Part shown: piece by piece, positions 52,017 to 60,593 of the stretch | Numbering within the stretch: the stretch's first letter is position 1 | Layout: every line of letters begins with the position of its first letter | NCBI GenBank assembly: GCA_965202805.1 | Contig: OZ241869.1 | Coordinates: forward strand, 2,752,001-2,816,000 | Source: Longimicrobiales bacterium | GTDB lineage: Bacteria; Gemmatimonadota; Gemmatimonadetes; Longimicrobiales; Gaopeijiaceae | Direction: 5' to 3' | Length of the DNA stretch: 64,000 nucleotides | Notes under the pieces: model-generated | Seen by the model: the letters and a program-made list of their open reading frames with translations, nothing else | What the model was told of the DNA's origin: nothing | Databases searched by the model: none | Program-made: the position numbers and the translations under genes

Positions 52017-52113
52017 GCTGGATTTAAGTCTGTACGTGGTCCCGCGCTCTTAGGTCATTCCTGTCGACATCCTGTCGATGCCCCCGGGGCCACTCGTTGT
52101 GAGGAGGTGCAGT

Positions 52114-55100
52114 ATGAGTCGTCGCGGGTTCTTCGTTGGTCTCGGTCTGTTTGCGTTCCTCCTCCTCACAGCGACTCCCGCGCTGGCGCAGGGCGGCACC
52201 ATCACCGGCACCGTCGTCCACGGCGAAACGCTTCGCCCGCTGGCCGGCGCACAGGTCTCGATCCCCGAAACCGGAATCGGCGCCGTGGCGAACAGCGAGG
52301 GACGCTACCTCTTCCTCAACGTGCCGGTTGGCATGCACCCGCTTCAGGTCCAGATGATCGGGTACGGCACGCAGCAGACCACGGTTACCGTGGCTTCGGG
52401 GGAAACCGCGACCGTGGACTTCCAACTCGACATCGAAGCTCTCGGTCTGGACGAGATCGTCGTCACCGGCACGGTCGGCACCATTCAACGCCGAGCAGTC
52501 GCCAACGTGGTCGGGACCATGAACGCGGCCGAGGCGCTCGAGACCAGCGCGCCAGCGAACATCCAGCAGATGCTGACCGGACAGATCCCCGGGGTGTCCG
52601 TCCAGGTCGGCAGCGGCTCGGTCGGGTCCGGCAGCGGCATCATCATCCGCGGACGCAGCACGGTGGCGCTTGGCACACAACCCCTGCTGTACATCGATGG
52701 GGTCCGCGCCAACGGTGGCGTTGTCGGCTTCGGTCCCTGGACGAGCGACGGCACTTCCCGTCTCAATGATCTCAACCCGGAGGAAATAGAGCGGATCGAG
52801 ATCATCAAGGGCCCGGCGGCCGCCACCCTCTACGGCACGGAAGCCTCGGCCGGCGTGATCCAGGTCATCACCAAGAAGGGCGTTCCGGGTCGCGCAACGG
52901 TCGAGGTCGTCGCCCGGCAGGGCGCCAACTGGTTCCACAATCCGGGCGGACGGCTCCCGACCAACTACGGGATCGCCTCGGACGGACGGACCATCATCTC
53001 CCAGCATCCCTACCAGGACGAGGCGGCGGCGGGTCGCGACGTCTTCCGCACCGGAATGGTCCAGGGGTATGTGGTGAACGTCAGGGGCGGACGAGACAAT
53101 CTCACGTACTATTTCTCGGGAGCCTTCGACGACGAGGAAGGCTACCTGCCCAACAACGACAAGACCCGGACCAACGTACGGGCGAATGTTCAGGCGGCCG
53201 TGACGGACGAGCTCGACATGGCCGTCGATCTCGGCGTCGTTCGGAGTCTGAGGCACACGGCGAGGGACATCGATTTCGGCCTGATCGCCACCCACCAGTT
53301 CGGTTCTCCCGTCACCCAGGACACGCCGTTGCGGGGGTTCTCCAATGCTCCTCCTGAAATCACCGCGCTGCGCGACTGGCAGGACCGGCTGAACCGGGGC
53401 ACGGTTTCGACCACGATCAACCACCGACCGACCGACTGGTTGAGCCAGAGAGTCGTCTGGGGACTGGACTTCACCGACTCCAGGCTTTCGACCTTCGTGC
53501 CCCGCATGCCGGACACCGAGGAGGCTTCATACTTCGGCTTCCACGGTTCGGAGGGCGGGGGCCAGGGTGCGAAGGGTGTTGAGGAGAAACGCGACGTGAA
53601 CCAGACGTTCGACTACAACCTCACCGCGTCGTTCGAGCCGTTCTCCGAGGTCACCGCGGCATCGTCGTTCGGGATACAGTATTTCACGCGCGAGTTCCGG
53701 GTGACTTCCGCGAGCGCCATCCAGATGCCGACCCCGGCTGTGTCCACGGTCTCTTCCGGATCGGTGGCAACAGGCGGAGAGTCCTACGTCGCGAACAAGA
53801 CCTTTGGCGTCTTCGGCCAGCAGACGGTCGGATGGCGGGAACAGCTGTTCCTTACCGCCGCGTTGCGCGCCGACGCCAACAGCGCCTTTGGCGAATCCTT
53901 CAACGCCGCCTACTACCCCAAGCTGAGTGGAAGCTGGGTGATCAGCGACGCCGAGTTCTTCAACCTTCCAACCGTCGAGACCCTTCGCCTGCGGGCCGCG
54001 TGGGGAAGGTCGGGGATGCAGCCGGACGCGTTCGCGGCGGTCCGGACCTATGTCCCGTCCGTGGGGCCCGGCAACGTGCCCACCGTGAGGCCCGGGGAAG
54101 TGGGCAATCCGGACCTCAAGCCCGAGGTCGGGTCGGAGCTGGAGGTGGGGTTTGATGCCAGCCTTCTCGGGGACCACGTCAACCTTGAGGTGACCCACTA
54201 CCGGCAGACAACGAACGACGCGATCCTGATCGCCGCGTCGGCGCCGTCGGGCGGCTTCTCCAGCAGCCGCTTCGTCAACGCCGGCAGGGTGGAGAACAAC
54301 GGCTGGGAGCTGTCGCTCACCGCGCGCCCCATCCAGACGCGGGCGTTGGGCTTCAGCCTGACCGGCACCGTCTCTCACAACACGAACCTGCTTGCGGACA
54401 ACGGCGGGCTCCCGCCTCTGCAGATCGACCGGCGGGGCCGTTTCCAGCACATCGAGGGCTGGCCCCTCGGCGCAAACTGGAGTCGGCATGTGGCTTCCGC
54501 GCAGTGGGGTGGGCCTCAGGGCCGGAACCTGGTCAACATCATGTGCCATGGAGGGCCGCCGGGCGTCTTCAACATGGACGAGTCCGAGATCGGCCAGCAT
54601 CCGCCGGTCCCCTGCGGAAACGCGCCCTACTTCTTCACCGCCCAGGCTGGACCCGGATGGCTGGGCAGCCTCTCCTCGCAGCTGACGCTCGGCGACAACC
54701 TGACGCTCAATGCACTGTTCACGTGGTACGCGGACCGTACCAGGTTCAGCACCACGCAGTGGAAGCGGGACAACTCGTTCGGGAACTCGCTCCAGGGGGC
54801 CCAGGCCCGCATCGGCGAACTCGATCCGATCCTGGCGGCCTCATTCCTGACGGCTGGAGTGGAGTGGCCGCACCACCAGCGGGAAGACCACATCCGCCTG
54901 CGCGACGTATCTCTCAGCTACAGCCTGCCGACCAGCCTGGTAGAGGGCTTCGGGATGTCGCGGGCAACCCTGACGGTGACCGGGCGAAACCTGTGGACCC
55001 CATATGTTCACGAGAGCTTCACCGATCTCGATCCGGAAGCGAAACACGCGCGGGACCGGGAGTACGGCTGGCAGCTCAATCCCCCACCCCTGCCACACTC

Positions 55101-55131
55101 CGTCATCACCACGCTGAGGGTGAGGTTCTGA
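52114..55131 (+). CDS. SusC/RagA-like TonB-dependent transporter
   Basis: Signal peptide, N-terminal extension, LDEIVVTG TonB box, PLLYIDG, IEIIKGPAAATLYG, GNPDLKPE and a terminal Phe. Confidence 0.93.
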   Translation: MSRRGFFVGLGLFAFLLLTATPALAQGGTITGTVVHGETLRPLAGAQVSIPETGIGAVANSEGRYLFLNVPVGMHPLQVQMIGYGTQQTTVTVASGETATVDFQLDIEALGLDEIVVTGTVGTIQRRAVANVVGTMNAAEALETSAPANIQQMLTGQIPGVSVQVGSGSVGSGSGIIIRGRSTVALGTQPLLYIDGVRANGGVVGFGPWTSDGTSRLNDLNPEEIERIEIIKGPAAATLYGTEASAGVIQVITKKGVPGRATVEVVARQGANWFHNPGGRLPTNYGIASDGRTIISQHPYQDEAAAGRDVFRTGMVQGYVVNVRGGRDNLTYYFSGAFDDEEGYLPNNDKTRTNVRANVQAAVTDELDMAVDLGVVRSLRHTARDIDFGLIATHQFGSPVTQDTPLRGFSNAPPEITALRDWQDRLNRGTVSTTINHRPTDWLSQRVVWGLDFTDSRLSTFVPRMPDTEEASYFGFHGSEGGGQGAKGVEEKRDVNQTFDYNLTASFEPFSEVTAASSFGIQYFTREFRVTSASAIQMPTPAVSTVSSGSVATGGESYVANKTFGVFGQQTVGWREQLFLTAALRADANSAFGESFNAAYYPKLSGSWVISDAEFFNLPTVETLRLRAAWGRSGMQPDAFAAVRTYVPSVGPGNVPTVRPGEVGNPDLKPEVGSELEVGFDASLLGDHVNLEVTHYRQTTNDAILIAASAPSGGFSSSRFVNAGRVENNGWELSLTARPIQTRALGFSLTGTVSHNTNLLADNGGLPPLQIDRRGRFQHIEGWPLGANWSRHVASAQWGGPQGRNLVNIMCHGGPPGVFNMDESEIGQHPPVPCGNAPYFFTAQAGPGWLGSLSSQLTLGDNLTLNALFTWYADRTRFSTTQWKRDNSFGNSLQGAQARIGELDPILAASFLTAGVEWPHHQREDHIRLRDVSLSYSLPTSLVEGFGMSRATLTVTGRNLWTPYVHESFTDLDPEAKHARDREYGWQLNPPPLPHSVITTLRVRF

Positions 55132-55208
55132 TGATCCGCCGTCAGCCGAGTGACCGAGCACGAAACAGTTTCCTGCCCGCGCTGCCGGCAGGAGGAAGAG
55201 GGGGTCGC

Positions 55209-56462
55209 ATGCGCAATCGATTTCAATACCATCGCGGTTATCACCTGAGCGTTGGCGGGCTGACGCTGATTCTGACGCTGTCGCTCCTCGGGTGTGACAA
55301 CCTTCTGGAAGTGGAACTCCCCGGTGCCACGACTGCCGAAGCACTGGACGATCCGGGGTTCGCCACGTTGCTGACCACCAGCGTCCAGGGTGAGTTCGAG
55401 TGTGCGTACTCCAGCTTCATCTGGGGCACATCTCACCTGGGCGGCGAGATCATCGGCGGATTCGTCGAGGCGGGGGGCGCCGAGTGGCTCCAGCGCAACG
55501 TCACGCCGGCGAGCAGTGACTATGTCGGGAGCGGCTGCGGCGGCACCGGCGTGTACGCGCCGATGGCGACGGCTCGCGCACTTGCGGACGACGTCATCGG
55601 GAGGCTCCAAGCCTGGACGGACCAGGAGGTGGCGGGCCGAGGCGAGCTGCTCGCGAAGGCCAACCTGTACGCGGGGTTCAACTACGTCATCTTCGGCGAC
55701 GCAATGTGCACCGCGGCCTTCGACAACGGCCCTGAGCTGCAGCCGGCGGCCATGTTCGAACTGGCGAAGGACCGCTTCAGCGAGGCCACCTCGGCGAGCG
55801 ATGCCCAGATCAGGAATGCCGCCTATGTCGGACTCGCCCGGGCCAATCTCTCGCTGGGAGACAATCAGGCGGCGCTCTCCGCAGCCGAGCAGGTCTCGCG
55901 CGGCTTCAGCTACGACGTGACCCGCTCGTCCGCCAACAACGCCCGCCGGAATATCATCTACCTGAACAACAACCAGAATCGCAGGATTTCCGTCGACCCG
56001 CACTACTGGGACGTGACCTGGATGGGCGTTCCCGATCCCAGGGTGGACGTCACGAACACGGGCGGCAAGACAACCGACGGCGTGACGGACCTGTGGCTCC
56101 AGACCAAATACGGTTCGGATTCGTCGCCTTACCGGCTCGCGAGCCATGTGGAGGCCCAGTTGATCATCGCCGAGGTCGCGGGAGGCCAGAGGGCCGTCGA
56201 CATCATCAACGAGCTGCACGCCGCCGCGGGAATCCCACCCTTTGAGGGCGGTTCAGAGGCCGAGATCCGGGCTCAGGTCATCGAGGAACGGCGGCGCGAG
56301 TTCTTCCTGGAGGGGAGGAGGTTCGGCGACCTGCGCCGCTACGGCGGGTTTGACGAGTGGACCAAGGGCACGCATCCGTTCACCCCCATCACATATGGGG
56401 GCAACGAGTGCATGCCCCTGCCCAATGTGGAGCGATTCAACAATCCCAGCCTCTCGGGCTGA
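55209..56462 (+). CDS. SusD/RagB-like lipoprotein
   Basis: LLGC lipobox, EAQLIIAE, ERRREFFLEGRRFGDLRR and PLPNVERFNNP. Alternative start at 55131. Confidence 0.9.
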   Translation: MRNRFQYHRGYHLSVGGLTLILTLSLLGCDNLLEVELPGATTAEALDDPGFATLLTTSVQGEFECAYSSFIWGTSHLGGEIIGGFVEAGGAEWLQRNVTPASSDYVGSGCGGTGVYAPMATARALADDVIGRLQAWTDQEVAGRGELLAKANLYAGFNYVIFGDAMCTAAFDNGPELQPAAMFELAKDRFSEATSASDAQIRNAAYVGLARANLSLGDNQAALSAAEQVSRGFSYDVTRSSANNARRNIIYLNNNQNRRISVDPHYWDVTWMGVPDPRVDVTNTGGKTTDGVTDLWLQTKYGSDSSPYRLASHVEAQLIIAEVAGGQRAVDIINELHAAAGIPPFEGGSEAEIRAQVIEERRREFFLEGRRFGDLRRYGGFDEWTKGTHPFTPITYGGNECMPLPNVERFNNPSLSG

Positions 56463-56542
56463 AGGGTGAATTGAGACACGCTTCGCGGGCCCCCCGAAAC
56501 CGGGTGCCGGCGGGCGCGCGCGTTTCCCGAGCGATCTGCAGA

Positions 56543-57052
56543 ATGCTGCTCGCAAGAGACTTCCCGATCCGAAAGTACGTCTGCGTGGCTGCCGTCCAGT
56601 TCCTCTGTTCGGGATGCTTCGGCTATGTCACGGCGGAGCGCGGGACCGTGCCGCCTGGCGAGAGGGTGCGTGTACACCTGACGCAGGAAGGGCTTGACGA
56701 CCTGGTGGAGTTCGCTCCTGGCCTCACGATGGACGGCACGCTCGTTCGGGCCGACAGCGACCAGCTCATCCTGCGCGTCTCGGTCGTGGACCAGACGGTC
56801 GGGATCATGACGAGATCCCTGGGGCAGGACCTGACGATCCCGGCCAGCCGTATCGCTCGACTGGAGCAGCGCGAGCTCGACCGCAGGCGAACCTGGCTGA
56901 CCGCCGGGGTCGGCGCCGCCGCCGTGGCCGCGATTCTGACGAGCTTCGGGGAAGGGGTCCCGAACCCCGAGCTTCCACCTGTGGAGGAGGATCCCGCCGG
57001 ATTCACAGCTTTGAGAGCGGCGATCTCGCTGTTTATGATTCGGGCCCGTTAG
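56543..57052 (+). CDS. Hypothetical lipoprotein with a C-terminal hydrophobic segment
   Basis: Lipobox-like CSGC, GERVRVHLT beta domain and WLTAGVGAAAVAAIL; sits inside the operon. Confidence 0.65.
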   Translation: MLLARDFPIRKYVCVAAVQFLCSGCFGYVTAERGTVPPGERVRVHLTQEGLDDLVEFAPGLTMDGTLVRADSDQLILRVSVVDQTVGIMTRSLGQDLTIPASRIARLEQRELDRRRTWLTAGVGAAAVAAILTSFGEGVPNPELPPVEEDPAGFTALRAAISLFMIRAR

Positions 57053-57063
57053 CGCGGAAACCC

Positions 57064-58917
57064 ATGATGAACCCGGAAGCACGTCCGGCAGCGCGCGGCT
57101 CCTCGCCCTCCTTGCGTTCGAGTTGGGCACCAGCGGTTCTCACGACGCTGATCTGCGCGACGGCGGCCAGCGCCCAGGAGCCTCCGTCCGGTTGGGAGGA
57201 GATGGTCGCCTCCGAGGAAGCCATCGTCCAGGTCTCGCCGCACATCAAGCGCCTCGGCCACTCGACCCTGAACCTCCACCTCCCCGACGAGTCCACCCGG
57301 ACGGTGTTCGGAGACGTCGTCAAGGTCGTGGATCTCCTGTCGGTCGAACCCCGAGGCGGGAATGCGCTCGGCGTGGTCGGGGGGGCTTCCCATGAGCCGG
57401 GGGCGCGTGACGTTGCCCGACGGGATCTGGCCCTGTGGCGACCGCTCCTGGACCACGTCGAGTACTTCGACCATGCGAAGTTCGAGGTGATCCGCGGCCA
57501 ACTGCTCGCGGACAACCCGGGACGCCTCGAGACCGACCTGGGCTTCGAAGCCCTGGCACGCGTCCCGGACGGTCGGCTCTGGTTGCGTGGCGACCTGACC
57601 GTCACATGGGCGGCCGGGGCCCCGCTGGAAAAGGACGGGCCGGCCACCTGGAGCATCGTGGAGTGGCGAACCGGAGAGCTGCGGGCCATGGCGGCCGACC
57701 GCCTCCTCTTCGCCGAGATCCTGGATCAGGCCCTGGAGCCCGAAGCGCTGGGCCCGGCCCGTCGCTCGATACACGAGGAGTTCGTCCTCGAGTACCTGCT
57801 CGATCCGGACGGCTTCCAGCGTCCCACGCCCTATTTCGATGTGCAGTCGGCGGATCGGCATCCGGGGATTGCGGTCACGGATGTGAACGGCGACGGCTTC
57901 GACGATGTGTACGTCATGGCACGCTGGGGTCCGAACCAGTTCTTCCAGAACCAGGGCGACGGAACCTTCGAGGAAGTCGCCGCGAGGATCGGCCTCGACG
58001 TGTCCCATTTCACTTCGTCGGCGCTGTTCGCCGACTTCGACAACGACGGCGACCAGGACGTCTTTATCGGCCGGACGCTGCAGCCGAGCGTCTACCTGGT
58101 GAACGAAGGAGGTCGCTTCGTCGATCGTTCGCTCGACCTGTCCGACGACCCGCTGCCGGCACTCGTCTCGTCGGTCTCGGCCGCCGACTACGATGGCGAC
58201 GGCCTGCTCGACCTCTACGTCTCCACCTTCGCCGCCGCCCTGCATCCGATCGAGACGATGGCGTTCCTCGACCAGCTCGACGGACAGCGTCTGTGGGCGC
58301 TCGCGACCGGCGGCGAGAGTCACGTCATCAAGAACAAGTTCGGGCCCCCCAACGTCCTCTTGCGGAACCGGGGCGGCGGCCGGTTCGCACGCGAGGAGAA
58401 CACCGCGCTCAACCTCTTCAGAAACACCTACCAGTCCACCTGGGCCGACTACGACAATGACGGCGACATGGACGTCTACGTCGTGAACGACTTCGCGCCC
58501 AACAACCTCTACCGGAACGACGGCGGGGGCGCGTTCACGGACGTCACGGCGCCGACCGGGACGGCCGACCTCGGCTTCGGCATGGGGGCATCGTGGGGAG
58601 ACTATGACGCCGACGGCCTGCAGGACCTCTATGTGACGAACATGCACAGCAAGGCAGGCCTGCGGATCGCCGCGCGGCTGAACGACGTCGACGGGAACTT
58701 CACGCGGATGGCCCGTGGCAATACTCTGTTCCGAAACCGGATGGACGGGTTCGAGCAGGTCTCCAGCCTCGAGCGACCCGGATTGCCGGTTGAGGCGGCC
58801 GGATGGGGATGGGGAAGCCAGTTTGTCGACCTGGACAACGACTCGGATCTCGACATCCATGCCTTGAGCGGGTTCTATACCGCTCCATCGGCGGTCGAGC
58901 TGCCCATCGACATATGA
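57064..58917 (+). other. FG-GAP/VCBS (CRTAC1-like) repeat segment upstream of the TGA
   Basis: Signal peptide (ASA-Q) and six DxxxDGxxD-type Ca-binding blades, e.g. DVNGDGFDD, DFDNDGDQD and DYDGDGLLD. Confidence 0.88.
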
Positions 58918-60066
58918 ACTGACTACTGGCGCGCAGTTGTGCGCTCGGACGAACATCCAGGGGCGCTTCAGCTCGAAACCGACCTCTATTCGAGAGCGAC
59001 GGAACGGCTCCAGTCGGGAGCATCGTTCAGCGGACACGAGCGCAATCACGTCTTTCTCAACCAGAACGGAGACGACTACGTCGAGGTCTCCGGAATCTCC
59101 GGTCTGGATCATCCCGGAGACAGCAGGGCCTTCGCCGTTCTCGACTTTGATCGGGACGGGTGGCAGGACATCGTGGTGGTCAACGCGAACGCACCGCTGT
59201 TTCAGCTGTTCCGGAACCAGATGGGCGAACGTGGTGATCCGGGAGGAATGGTGGCGATTCGCTTCGAGGGTGGAAACCGGTATGCGTTCCCCACCGGCCA
59301 GTGGAGCAGCCGCGATGCCTATGGCGCCCGGGTAGTCCTCGAGGTCCGGGGCCGCGAACTGCTGCGCGAGCATCGCGCGGGCGAAGGTCTCGCCGCGCAG
59401 AACTCGGCGTCGCTGCACATCGGCATCGGCACCGCGGAAGAGGTCGCCAGGCTCAAAATCGACTGGCCGTCAGGCCGGCGGTCCGACACCACGGCCGTCC
59501 CCGCGGGGACGCTGGTCACCGCCTACGAGGATCCTTCGGCTTCGCCCACGGGGGCTCCGTTCGTCCTGACACCGTACCGGGCACGCGGCCGGCTGCCCAC
59601 GGTGACCTCGCCCGTGAAGGCCGTGGAGACCGTCAATGCCGTGCAAGGGCCGATCCGCGCCGCGCAAGACGTCCTTCCCGGCGAACGCGGCCGTCTCATC
59701 CTGTATTCGACCGTGGCCACATGGTGCGCCCCGTGCCTCGATGAGCTTCCGGGCCTCGACCTCCTCAGAGCCTCCTTCACAGGCGCGGAGCTGGAGATCT
59801 TCGGGGTGCCCTACGACCCGGAAGAGACGCCGGAGATCCTGGCCGCCTGGTCGGAGCGATACGAGCCACCATACCGCATCCTCTCCGAGCTGAACCCCGG
59901 GCAGCGCGATGCGGTGATTCACGGCGCACTCGACGTCTTGCGCATCGATGGGCTTCCCGCAACCGTCGTAACCGATTCGGAGGGCGAGGTACTTGTCGTG
60001 CGCTGGGGACCGCCGTCGGTCTCGGAGCTGCGCGTCCTTCTCGAGAATCAGGAGAACGGCAGGTGA
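57064..60066 (+). CDS. Putative 1000-aa recoded protein (candidate selenoprotein): FG-GAP/VCBS propeller, in-frame TGA, ASPIC/UnbV and TlpA-like thioredoxin
   Basis: ORFs 57064-58917 and 58939-60066 share one frame and are separated only by TGA 58915-58917 (LPIDI*TDYWRAVV). The domain architecture continues across the stop. Confidence 0.65.
58918..60066 (+). other. Last FG-GAP blade, ASPIC/UnbV and thioredoxin-like segment downstream of the TGA
   Basis: SFSGHERN, DFDRDGWQD, RDAYGARV...AQNSASLHIGIG...WPSG, ATWCAPC and cis-Pro GLPAT. Confidence 0.88.
58926..58948 (+). promoter_or_regulatory. Bacterial SECIS-like stem-loop 3' of the in-frame UGA
   Basis: CUGG(C bulge)GCGCA-GUUG-UGCGCUCGG, with the apical loop starting with G at +19 from the UGA. 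Confidence 0.55.
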
Positions 60067-60593
60067 TCGGAGGCACGGCATCCTCGTGGTTCGGACAGAT
60101 TCTGCGGAGGGCTGCTCCGGCGTTCGCAGCTCTCGTCCCGATGCTGACGGCGGCGCCTGTTCAGGCACAGGTGCGCCTGGACGGACCGGGGCCGCGGCGT
60201 CCTTCCGTCTCCGCCGAGGTGGTGCGGGGAAGCACCGTGCGGCGCCCGGATTCCCTGTCGCTCCGGATCTCGGTGGAGGTCCCCGGCGCGCATCATGGGT
60301 ACATCGACAAGGGGGACGACGGGTTTTTCATTCCGTTCTCGTTCTCTTTCCCCGATTTCGAGGGATCCGGGGTCGGGGTCGAGATGACCGACGCGCCAGC
60401 CGGTACGAGAGACGACTCGGTAAGGGCGCAGGTGCTCAGAGGCCGGGCCGAGTTCGGGTTTCTGCTCGTGCCGGCACCGGGACCTGGCACGGAGGCGACT
60501 GCCAACCTTCGATATCAGATCTGCAGCGACTTGACGCAGCGGTGTTATCCGCCCGCAAGGCTGCCCATCCCGATTGTCCTGGACGGGAGGTAG
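60063..60593 (+). CDS. Exported DsbD N-terminal (alpha) domain-like protein
   Basis: GTGA overlap, signal (VQA-Q), Ig-like strands, and YQICSDLTQRCYPP resembling DsbD-alpha YQGC...CYPP. Confidence 0.75.
   Translation: MIGGTASSWFGQILRRAAPAFAALVPMLTAAPVQAQVRLDGPGPRRPSVSAEVVRGSTVRRPDSLSLRISVEVPGAHHGYIDKGDDGFFIPFSFSFPDFEGSGVGVEMTDAPAGTRDDSVRAQVLRGRAEFGFLLVPAPGPGTEATANLRYQICSDLTQRCYPPARLPIPIVLDGR

Follow-up and report, generated by a model that had tools for sequence, protein, structure and literature searches.

A probable CRTAC1-like selenoprotein family in bacteria: a conserved in-frame UGA, a covarying SECIS-like hairpin and a fused thioredoxin-fold domain

We know of no biochemical function for the CRTAC1/ASPIC family, which includes the best solved relative of the protein considered here. 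The gene of this protein lies in a 64,000-nucleotide (nt) stretch of DNA (hereafter 'the window'; positions 2,752,001 to 2,816,000 of contig OZ241869.1, assembly GCA_965202805.1) from a Longimicrobiales bacterium of the phylum Gemmatimonadota. The gene carries an in-frame UGA that very probably encodes selenocysteine (Sec), and its frame joins an FG-GAP beta-propeller, a UnbV/ASPIC domain and a thioredoxin-fold domain. Table S9 of Kim et al. 2016 (PLoS One, PMC4807772) lists four such genes as candidates, each annotated as two genes split by a UGA; in that table Gly occupies the column in the closest non-Sec match, and three of the four gave a positive bSECISearch result. For the bacterial selenocysteine insertion sequence (bSECIS), the limits given in a 2026 review (PMC13188914) are a loop of 3-9 nt, an upper stem of 4-16 bp, a spacing of 16-37 nt, a G in the first two loop positions and a minimum free energy (MFE) of at most -7.5.

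The frame opens with ATG at 57064 and meets its first TGA at 58915-58917 (codon 618, context ELPIDI*TDYWRAVVRS); past this codon the same frame runs on to a terminal TGA at 60064-60066, giving a read-through product of 1000 residues. With translation table 11 two open reading frames (ORFs) are called in this one shared frame, 57064..58917 (617 residues) and 58939..60066 (375 residues). An earlier note on this DNA had described the two ORFs, parted by a single TGA, and the 1000-residue read-through, and our frame translation agrees. Its main claim, that the UGA is a Sec codon, is supported by codon conservation, by homologues with a cysteine (Cys) codon, by a covarying hairpin, by the presence of selA, selB, selC and selD and by independent assemblies. 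The gene and the codon are as follows.

57064..60066, + strand: predicted single selenoprotein gene, 1000 codons plus terminal TGA (full-length one-TGA orthologues in the genus; ratio of nonsynonymous to synonymous substitution rates, dN/dS)
58915..58917, + strand: UGA very probably read as Sec (U618), motif D-x-U-[ST]-x-[FY]-W-R (conservation of the TGA column)

Where a long frame is intact except for one in-frame stop, a fresh nonsense mutation comes to mind, and one may suspect a recent pseudogene or a sequencing or assembly error. Contigs from four runs of four studies each cover 58600-59300 unbroken, with 0, 18, 22 and 25 differences, none of them at the TGA (58915-58917) or at the hairpin (58926-58948). 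Because the contigs of four studies are unchanged there, the TGA, which the note wished to see confirmed, is not an assembly error. As against a fresh mutation, the same codon is present in species down to ~26% protein identity, and purifying selection acts past the stop (see below). We consider a pseudogene or an error extremely improbable.

Segment 58600-59300 was found in 10 studies; the 20 run rows comprise 9 sponge metagenomes, 1 marine metagenome and 10 coded organism names. Judging from the sponge metagenome runs, the host bacterium may be sponge-associated. No RNA run was listed among the sequencing runs containing this segment.

Conservation of the codon was followed in a set of 41 related genomes, 19 of them in the source genus. 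A full-length orthologue with 80-93% identity and exactly one in-frame TGA was found in 12 of the 19 genus genomes, and all 12 share the column of the TGA with the window gene. The genus tallies for the gene and for SelA include one unpublished genome, G025, which has a weak partial match and lacks SelA and is used for no claim. In a phylum-wide sample of 401 genomes we observed one further genus (G249) with three tandem paralogues, each flagged with one TGA; the sole copy read, L035, has TGA at column 618. A search with one genome per species yielded 80 loci, of which 48 aligned at column 618. The codon there is TGA in 33 loci, TGC or TGT in three (L091, L099, L113), GAG in one and GAC in one; in the remaining 10 the local alignment lies elsewhere (nine on another blade or paralogue, and L110, which is shifted and has Cys at the equivalent place as judged by eye). 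Neither TAA nor TAG occurs at column 618 among the 48 aligned loci. The TGA loci span, by database labels, Gemmatimonadetes, Acidobacteriota, Verrucomicrobiota and Planctomycetota, with one metagenome-assembled genome (MAG) labelled Proteobacteria, and the TGA-form homologues reach down to the ~26% protein identity mentioned above.

The tabulation of codon 618 had been proposed in the earlier note, with the remark that a TGA seen only in this genome, or one exchanged freely for TAA or TAG in relatives, would speak against Sec; neither pattern was found. The note expected TGA to alternate with Cys. This holds for L091, L099 and L113, while most non-Sec homologues have D, S, N, E, A or Q instead.

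The three paralogues of G249, a genus of the same family, lie in tandem within 10 kb (G249:C1:829224-838727), L035 being the middle copy. Distant CRTAC1-like paralogues of the phylum sample with an in-frame TGA (34-39% identical) were not used; the three that were checked miss the column (T in L036, D in L037, a gap in L040).

The TGA could still be a true stop, ending a 617-residue propeller fragment, with a 375-residue UnbV/thioredoxin protein restarted at GTG 58939. The table 11 calls give two ORFs, 91 of the best 120 database proteins end exactly before the column 618 codon, and most loci have a GTG 8 codons further on. However, the stop at the column is TGA in all 33 loci and all 12 congeners, whereas the real ends of the 33 TGA-form ORFs use all three stops (TGA 16, TAG 9, TAA 5; three run off the locus). 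Some homologues have Cys codons at the column, and the break would fall inside the propeller and cut a conserved motif. The first in-frame start after the TGA is the Val codon of a conserved WRxVV motif; GTG 58939, placed inside the hairpin by the note, was indeed found as a Val codon within the 3' arm, and in four loci there is no in-frame start until codon +29 to +31 after the TGA. There is no conserved restart 3' of the TGA, and the downstream half is, as the note had stated, without a signal peptide of its own. The dN/dS values against the window gene (12 comparisons) were 0.18-0.29 before the TGA and 0.17-0.37 after it, which indicates purifying selection on both halves. We consider termination at this codon very improbable.

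The element that would direct Sec insertion lies immediately downstream.

58926..58948, + strand: bSECIS-like hairpin (5' arm 58926-58934, loop AGUU 58935-58938, 3' arm 58939-58944, bulged U 58945, then 58946-58948)

The hairpin begins 11 nt after the UGA, its apical loop lies 17 nt after it, and the fold over 58926-58948 has -13.1 kcal/mol. All the limits quoted above from the review (PMC13188914) accommodate it (4-nt loop, 6+3 bp, G then U, 17 nt, -13.1 kcal/mol), in keeping with the SECIS likeness claimed in the earlier note. That note had the fold right; its register was one base off, so that the loop is AGUU with G second rather than first.

Each of the 33 TGA loci has a hairpin at this position (MFE -7.0 to -13.7 kcal/mol); the forms with Cys, Glu or Asp have none there. 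Among the 23 sequences of the short-type subfamily, pairing holds in 93.5% of cells, versus 17-68% with the partner slid; the pair that uses a synonymous Arg third base occurs as GU 7, AU 5, CG 4, UA 3 and GC 2, and the covariation score was reached by 0 of 500 shuffles. In the long-type subfamily, which includes the window (23 sequences, 21 distinct), 92.6% of cells pair, versus 22-66% slid. L035, the G249 paralogue that was read, is altered on both sides of two pairs, and its arms GCGUACA/UGUACGC pair fully only in the register with loop AGUU; in L061 and L064 the hairpin is displaced by 3 nt and its loops are GUU and GUA. When loci were recoded synonymously, the observed fold beat the recoded mean in 31 of 33. 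The covariation check suggested earlier thus gave pairing far above the slid controls in both subfamilies, and the base pairs are kept by compensatory change. An Rfam scan of 58800-59100 by E-value returned just a chance match to a microRNA family. A motif regular expression matched nothing in L020-L022, which leaves the WRQVV-type non-Sec forms without a DNA control.

All four genes of the Sec machinery, which the note had asked after, are in the genome: selA (433 bits), selB (a SelB winged-helix match of 33.5 bits, over cut-off, in a 659-residue frame), selD (302 bits) and the tRNA-SeC gene selC at 987331-987427. SelA was found in 18 of 18 congeners, in four of five other TGA-form genomes and in four of five non-TGA-form genomes, the exception among the latter being the Cys-form Arenicella.

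Leaky UGA readthrough is a known phenomenon in bacteria, and the codon might be read without Sec, by a near-cognate tRNA (Trp, Cys or Arg) or through general UGA reassignment. On the other side, UGA serves as an ordinary stop, even at the end of this gene; the genome has complete Sec machinery; a covarying hairpin occupies the SECIS position; and the one genome, among those checked, that combines a Cys form with the absence of SelA is as expected for a Sec/Cys switch. Readthrough of this kind is, in our judgment, very improbable, a shade more so than a true stop.

Some observations weigh against the Sec assignment. SelA was not found in the TGA-form MAG G421 (12.7 Mb). The fold energy of the window hairpin is unexceptional in GC-rich DNA (z -1.48; 19 of 200 shuffles as good), only 5 of 33 loci individually pass 5% on synonymous recoding, and the conserved WRxVV peptide dictates part of the stem. 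Even so, decoding of UGA 58915-58917 as Sec is, on the comparative evidence, very probable.

Other frames and tRNA genes came to light in the same searches. Outside the window, an FdhA-like frame with one in-frame TGA (G000:C1:83769-84506, minus strand) is probably a second selenoprotein of the genome. Congeners have thioredoxin-like short frames, with one in-frame TGA each, that match query residues 794-988 (e.g. G004:C162:6490-7050, G016:C138:7050-7604, G018:C8:410670-411233 and G017:C127:27768-28328); these are possibly known UxxC-type redoxin selenoproteins. ARAGORN reported 17 tRNA genes in ~3 kb on one strand (G000:C1:2827836-2830698), ~12 kb past the window end, and two odd calls, a 'tRNA-Stop (tta)' at 502084-502165 and a tRNA with unreadable anticodon at 3533314-3533388.

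The read-through protein divides into the following parts.

57064..57177, + strand: probable signal peptide, residues 1-38, hydrophobic stretch ending ASA|QEPP (read by eye; predicted local distance difference test, pLDDT, <50)
57193..57801, + strand: N-terminal domain, residues 44-246, one long helix and then long antiparallel strands (confident model)
57847..59223, + strand: FG-GAP beta-propeller, about residues 262-720 (Pfam FG-GAP_3, AlphaFold2 strands, Foldseek)
59245..59574, + strand: UnbV/ASPIC beta-sandwich, residues 728-837, Pfam core 752-818 (Pfam, model)
59647..60063, + strand: TlpA-like thioredoxin-fold domain, residues 862-1000, with CxxC (Pfam AhpC-TSA, PDB TlpA)

The N-terminal domain has no Pfam or NCBIfam match and is conserved in the long-type family alignment. 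Pfam FG-GAP_3 was matched in six stretches (147 bits) and UnbV_ASPIC at 752-818 (54.8 bits), both over the Pfam cut-offs. Murine CRTAC1 (9etn_A) is the top match by fold (Foldseek, E 5.9e-26, TMt 0.71) as well as the best PDB match by sequence (E 1.8e-13), which places the protein in the CRTAC1/ASPIC-UnbV family. The AhpC-TSA match at 876-976 scored 30.6 bits against a cut-off of 26, and TlpA (1jfu_A) was matched in PDB at E 7.1e-7; WCAPC stands at 887-891, with C888 encoded by 59725-59727 and C891 by 59734-59736. The NCBIfam scan gave weak TlpA-type matches only (TlpA 28.9 versus 230, DsbE 21.2 versus 123, ResA 20.1 versus 170), so that the C-terminal part is assigned at the level of fold and domain (AhpC-TSA plus CxxC) and not as a TlpA, ResA or DsbE equivalog. 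Besides C888 and C891 the read-through protein has a single Cys, C31, which lies in the presumed signal peptide.

The AlphaFold2 model (35 sequences; U618 modelled as Cys) has a mean pLDDT of 86.8 and a predicted template modelling score (pTM) of 0.88. In it the propeller is interrupted by a helical insert, 618-649, ahead of the last blade, which is encoded 3' of the TGA; U618 is the first residue of helix 618-630 within this insert, and a low-confidence linker (846-861) precedes the thioredoxin domain. Pfam and the model agree with the domain order given in the note (FG-GAP with its last blade past the TGA, ASPIC/UnbV, WCAPC thioredoxin). The placing of Sec in a propeller loop, also proposed there, has to be abandoned in favour of the helix start. 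Non-Sec relatives have D, S, N, T, G, E, Q, A or K at column 618, and most of these would be typical helix N-cap residues.

A CxxC follows Sec by 260-280 residues in 29 of the 33 Sec-form ORFs, and follows the motif in 0 of 19 full-length non-Sec homologues. In seven of these 19 the alignment still covers the thioredoxin motif, which has degenerated in every one of them (WSETM, WALPC, SAPPS, NSADS, SAASP, QAPTW, NAAAS). Sec and the distal CxxC thus co-vary, which is new here. This co-variation backs the suggestion of the note that Sec may be recycled by the fused CxxC domain.

Two sets of neighbouring genes bear on what such a protein might do.

60063..60593, + strand: stand-alone nDsbD-like exported protein, 176 residues, Cx6C-YPP (sub-cut-off Pfam, relatives, Foldseek)
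52078..57052, + strand: SusC-like TonB-dependent receptor, SusD-like protein and conserved small ORF 56357-57052 (Pfam; synteny)

The GTG start of the nDsbD-like gene overlaps the stop of the selenoprotein gene (GTGA). Its product scored 22.3 bits with Pfam DsbD_N, below the cut-off of 25, and gave no match in PDB and NCBIfam sequence searches; 52 of its 78 relatives (at least 58% identical, mostly without a name in the source databases) have PF11412 on record, C154 and C161 are invariant among relatives, and the ten best-ranked Foldseek chains for the model are all nDsbD. An nDsbD-like gene is directly downstream in 11 of 13 other Gemmatimonadota loci; of the two exceptions, L013 has the gene in two frames and L009 is cut by a contig end. 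The middle G249 copy, L035, is also followed by an nDsbD-like gene of its own. For the thioredoxin domain and the nDsbD-like protein the predicted complex scored 0.53, versus 0.01 for the best control; the runs agreed on at least 73% of contacts, and the partner had a pLDDT of at least 86. Among 157 solved complexes 116 attain the mark, against 2 of 215 mismatched pairs; with scores of 0.60 or less, only 18 of the 157 do so, and so do both mismatches that pass. The prediction lends weak support to a pairing of the two, and since similar nDsbD complexes have been solved, the pass may reflect likeness only.

The SusC-like receptor consists of CarboxypepD_reg, Plug and barrel by Pfam. In the small ORF 56357-57052 the conserved part begins near residue 50, with a lipobox-like LCSGC. 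Since congeners keep the end of the SusD-like gene and the small ORF in synteny with the selenoprotein gene, the SusC/SusD-like genes, the small ORF and the selenoprotein gene may form one uptake-type gene cluster.

Observed are the conserved UGA, the covarying hairpin, the Sec machinery, the domain architecture and the co-variation of Sec with the CxxC. We propose the following mechanism, in which the insertion of selenium, the export of the protein, its chemistry and substrate and every step of electron transfer are inferred. The UGA is very probably decoded as Sec by SelB and tRNA-Sec, directed by the SECIS hairpin. The product would be an exported 1000-residue protein made of the N-terminal domain, a CRTAC1-like propeller with UnbV/ASPIC, a flexible linker and a TlpA-like domain. 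U618 would sit at a helix N-terminal cap, where the helix dipole favours the selenolate, and would be the nucleophile of an extracytoplasmic redox reaction; the propeller would hold the oxidised substrate to be reduced, for instance a peroxide, a disulfide or something similar. This would leave a selenenic acid or selenenylsulfide, which the CxxC of the TlpA-like domain, fused to the same chain, would resolve. The nDsbD-like protein encoded next door would in this lineage re-reduce that domain, drawing electrons in turn from a DsbD/CcdA-type membrane protein encoded elsewhere. For an extracytoplasmic Sec/CxxC relay in general we put the chances at about even. The fuller version is tentative, falling somewhat short of that: a first exported beta-propeller selenoenzyme in which an N-cap selenolate and a tethered TlpA-like CxxC form an obligate redox pair, fed in this lineage by the nDsbD-like protein, with Sec having arisen at a non-Cys position and the CxxC decaying at each loss of Sec.

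The main rival accepts Sec insertion and denies that Sec is a catalytic redox residue recycled by the CxxC; Sec would then bind a metal or ligand, act as a regulatory switch or use an external reductant. Sec kept in a binding or regulatory role could explain why the column is variable, with the helix N-cap residues D, S, N, T, G and E in non-Sec relatives, and the position of the gene behind a SusC/SusD-like uptake pair suggests substrate binding. The lack of a CxxC domain in some Sec forms and in the Cys forms, and the repeated exchange of Sec for non-Cys residues, favour this rival too. Further observations weigh against the proposed reading as a whole. The gene is missing from 7 of the 19 congeners and is therefore dispensable. 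At the column, 19 of 19 other full-length non-Sec homologues have D, S, N, A, E or Q, not Cys. Four of the 33 Sec forms lack the CxxC (in Pirellulaceae and Verrucomicrobiales, ending after UnbV/ASPIC; one is contig-cut), all three Cys forms are without a thioredoxin domain, and L063, with Glu at the column, has kept the CxxC and groups in the quick tree as the sister of a Sec form. In that tree, in which relatives are not independent, non-Sec forms turn up among the Sec forms at three or more points, and five or more changes of the Sec label are forced; such repeated exchange of Sec with non-Cys residues is uncommon where a catalytic Sec is indispensable. Beyond this phylum, no nDsbD-like neighbour was found beside the gene in the loci of other phyla, and the nearest DsbD_TM gene, ~67 kb off, is not linked to the locus. 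Against the non-catalytic alternative stand the CxxC in 29 of 33 Sec forms versus 0 of 19 non-Sec forms, the fact that C888 and C891 are the only Cys residues of the mature protein, and the nDsbD-like gene coupled downstream. We regard this alternative as a serious possibility, a little under an even chance.

If the Sec assignment is true, the family adds an extracytoplasmic Sec site outside the thioredoxin fold and is a rare case of Sec alternating with residues other than Cys. For the CRTAC1/ASPIC fold it provides a redox handle and, should the reading as a propeller selenoenzyme be true, a catalytic, redox-linked function for a branch of CRTAC1/ASPIC; the Sec/CxxC co-variation yields a direct, testable prediction. 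Gene callers split the family and thereby hide its architecture from annotation, and selenoproteome counts miss it in Gemmatimonadota, Acidobacteriota, Planctomycetota and Verrucomicrobiota.

Table 1 of the 2026 review (PMC13188914) has 119 prokaryotic selenoprotein families, none of them under FG-GAP, VCBS, ASPIC or UnbV, and these terms did not appear in a search of its main text either. FG-GAP, VCBS, ASPIC, UnbV, CRTAC1 and propeller have no occurrence in the available texts and supplements of deep-Sep (PMC12013277) and BSepDB (PMC13326102). A scan of the read-through protein found no NCBIfam model for the family, and literature searches gave no paper on it besides Kim et al. 2016. The statement of the earlier note that no characterised selenoprotein of this family is known therefore stands in that none is catalogued in these sources, and has to be amended for the candidate listing in PMC4807772 Table S9: going by these sources, the family was named earlier as a candidate and was neither analysed nor catalogued. 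The site of those candidates is presumed to be that of column 618, via the Planctomycetota loci found here. They carry the same domain labels as our gene; unlike in the present analysis, they are table entries, and their supplement offers nothing on conservation, covariation, architecture or mechanism.

Compared with genes that use SelB and a SECIS within the ORF, with E. coli fdhF as the type case, the locus has the same order, with a stem-loop directly after the UGA and, in its small loop, G and then U; it also resembles the bSECIS consensus (PMC13188914) in that spacing, stem length and energy are within the limits and selA, selB, selC and selD are in the genome. It differs from fdhF-type genes in that the host protein appears to be an exported beta-propeller and not a cytoplasmic oxidoreductase or a thioredoxin-fold protein, in that Sec alternates mostly with non-Cys residues, and in that the hairpin register varies by lineage within the family (4- or 5-nt loops; the 3-nt shift in L061 and L064). 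With CRTAC1/ASPIC proteins (murine 9etn) it shares the FG-GAP propeller and the UnbV/ASPIC sandwich, at 17% identity to CRTAC1; bacterial CRTAC1-like paralogues have D, T, N, Q, G, E or K at the column and are without Sec, the fused thioredoxin domain and the N-terminal 200-residue domain. The thioredoxin fold with WCxPC, next to an nDsbD-like protein that keeps both Cys residues, recalls TlpA, ResA and DsbE with their nDsbD donor. Unlike in those systems, the TlpA-like unit is the C-terminal domain of a large protein, and unlike in DsbD, the nDsbD-like unit stands alone, being neither the N-terminus of a DsbD nor fused to a membrane domain.

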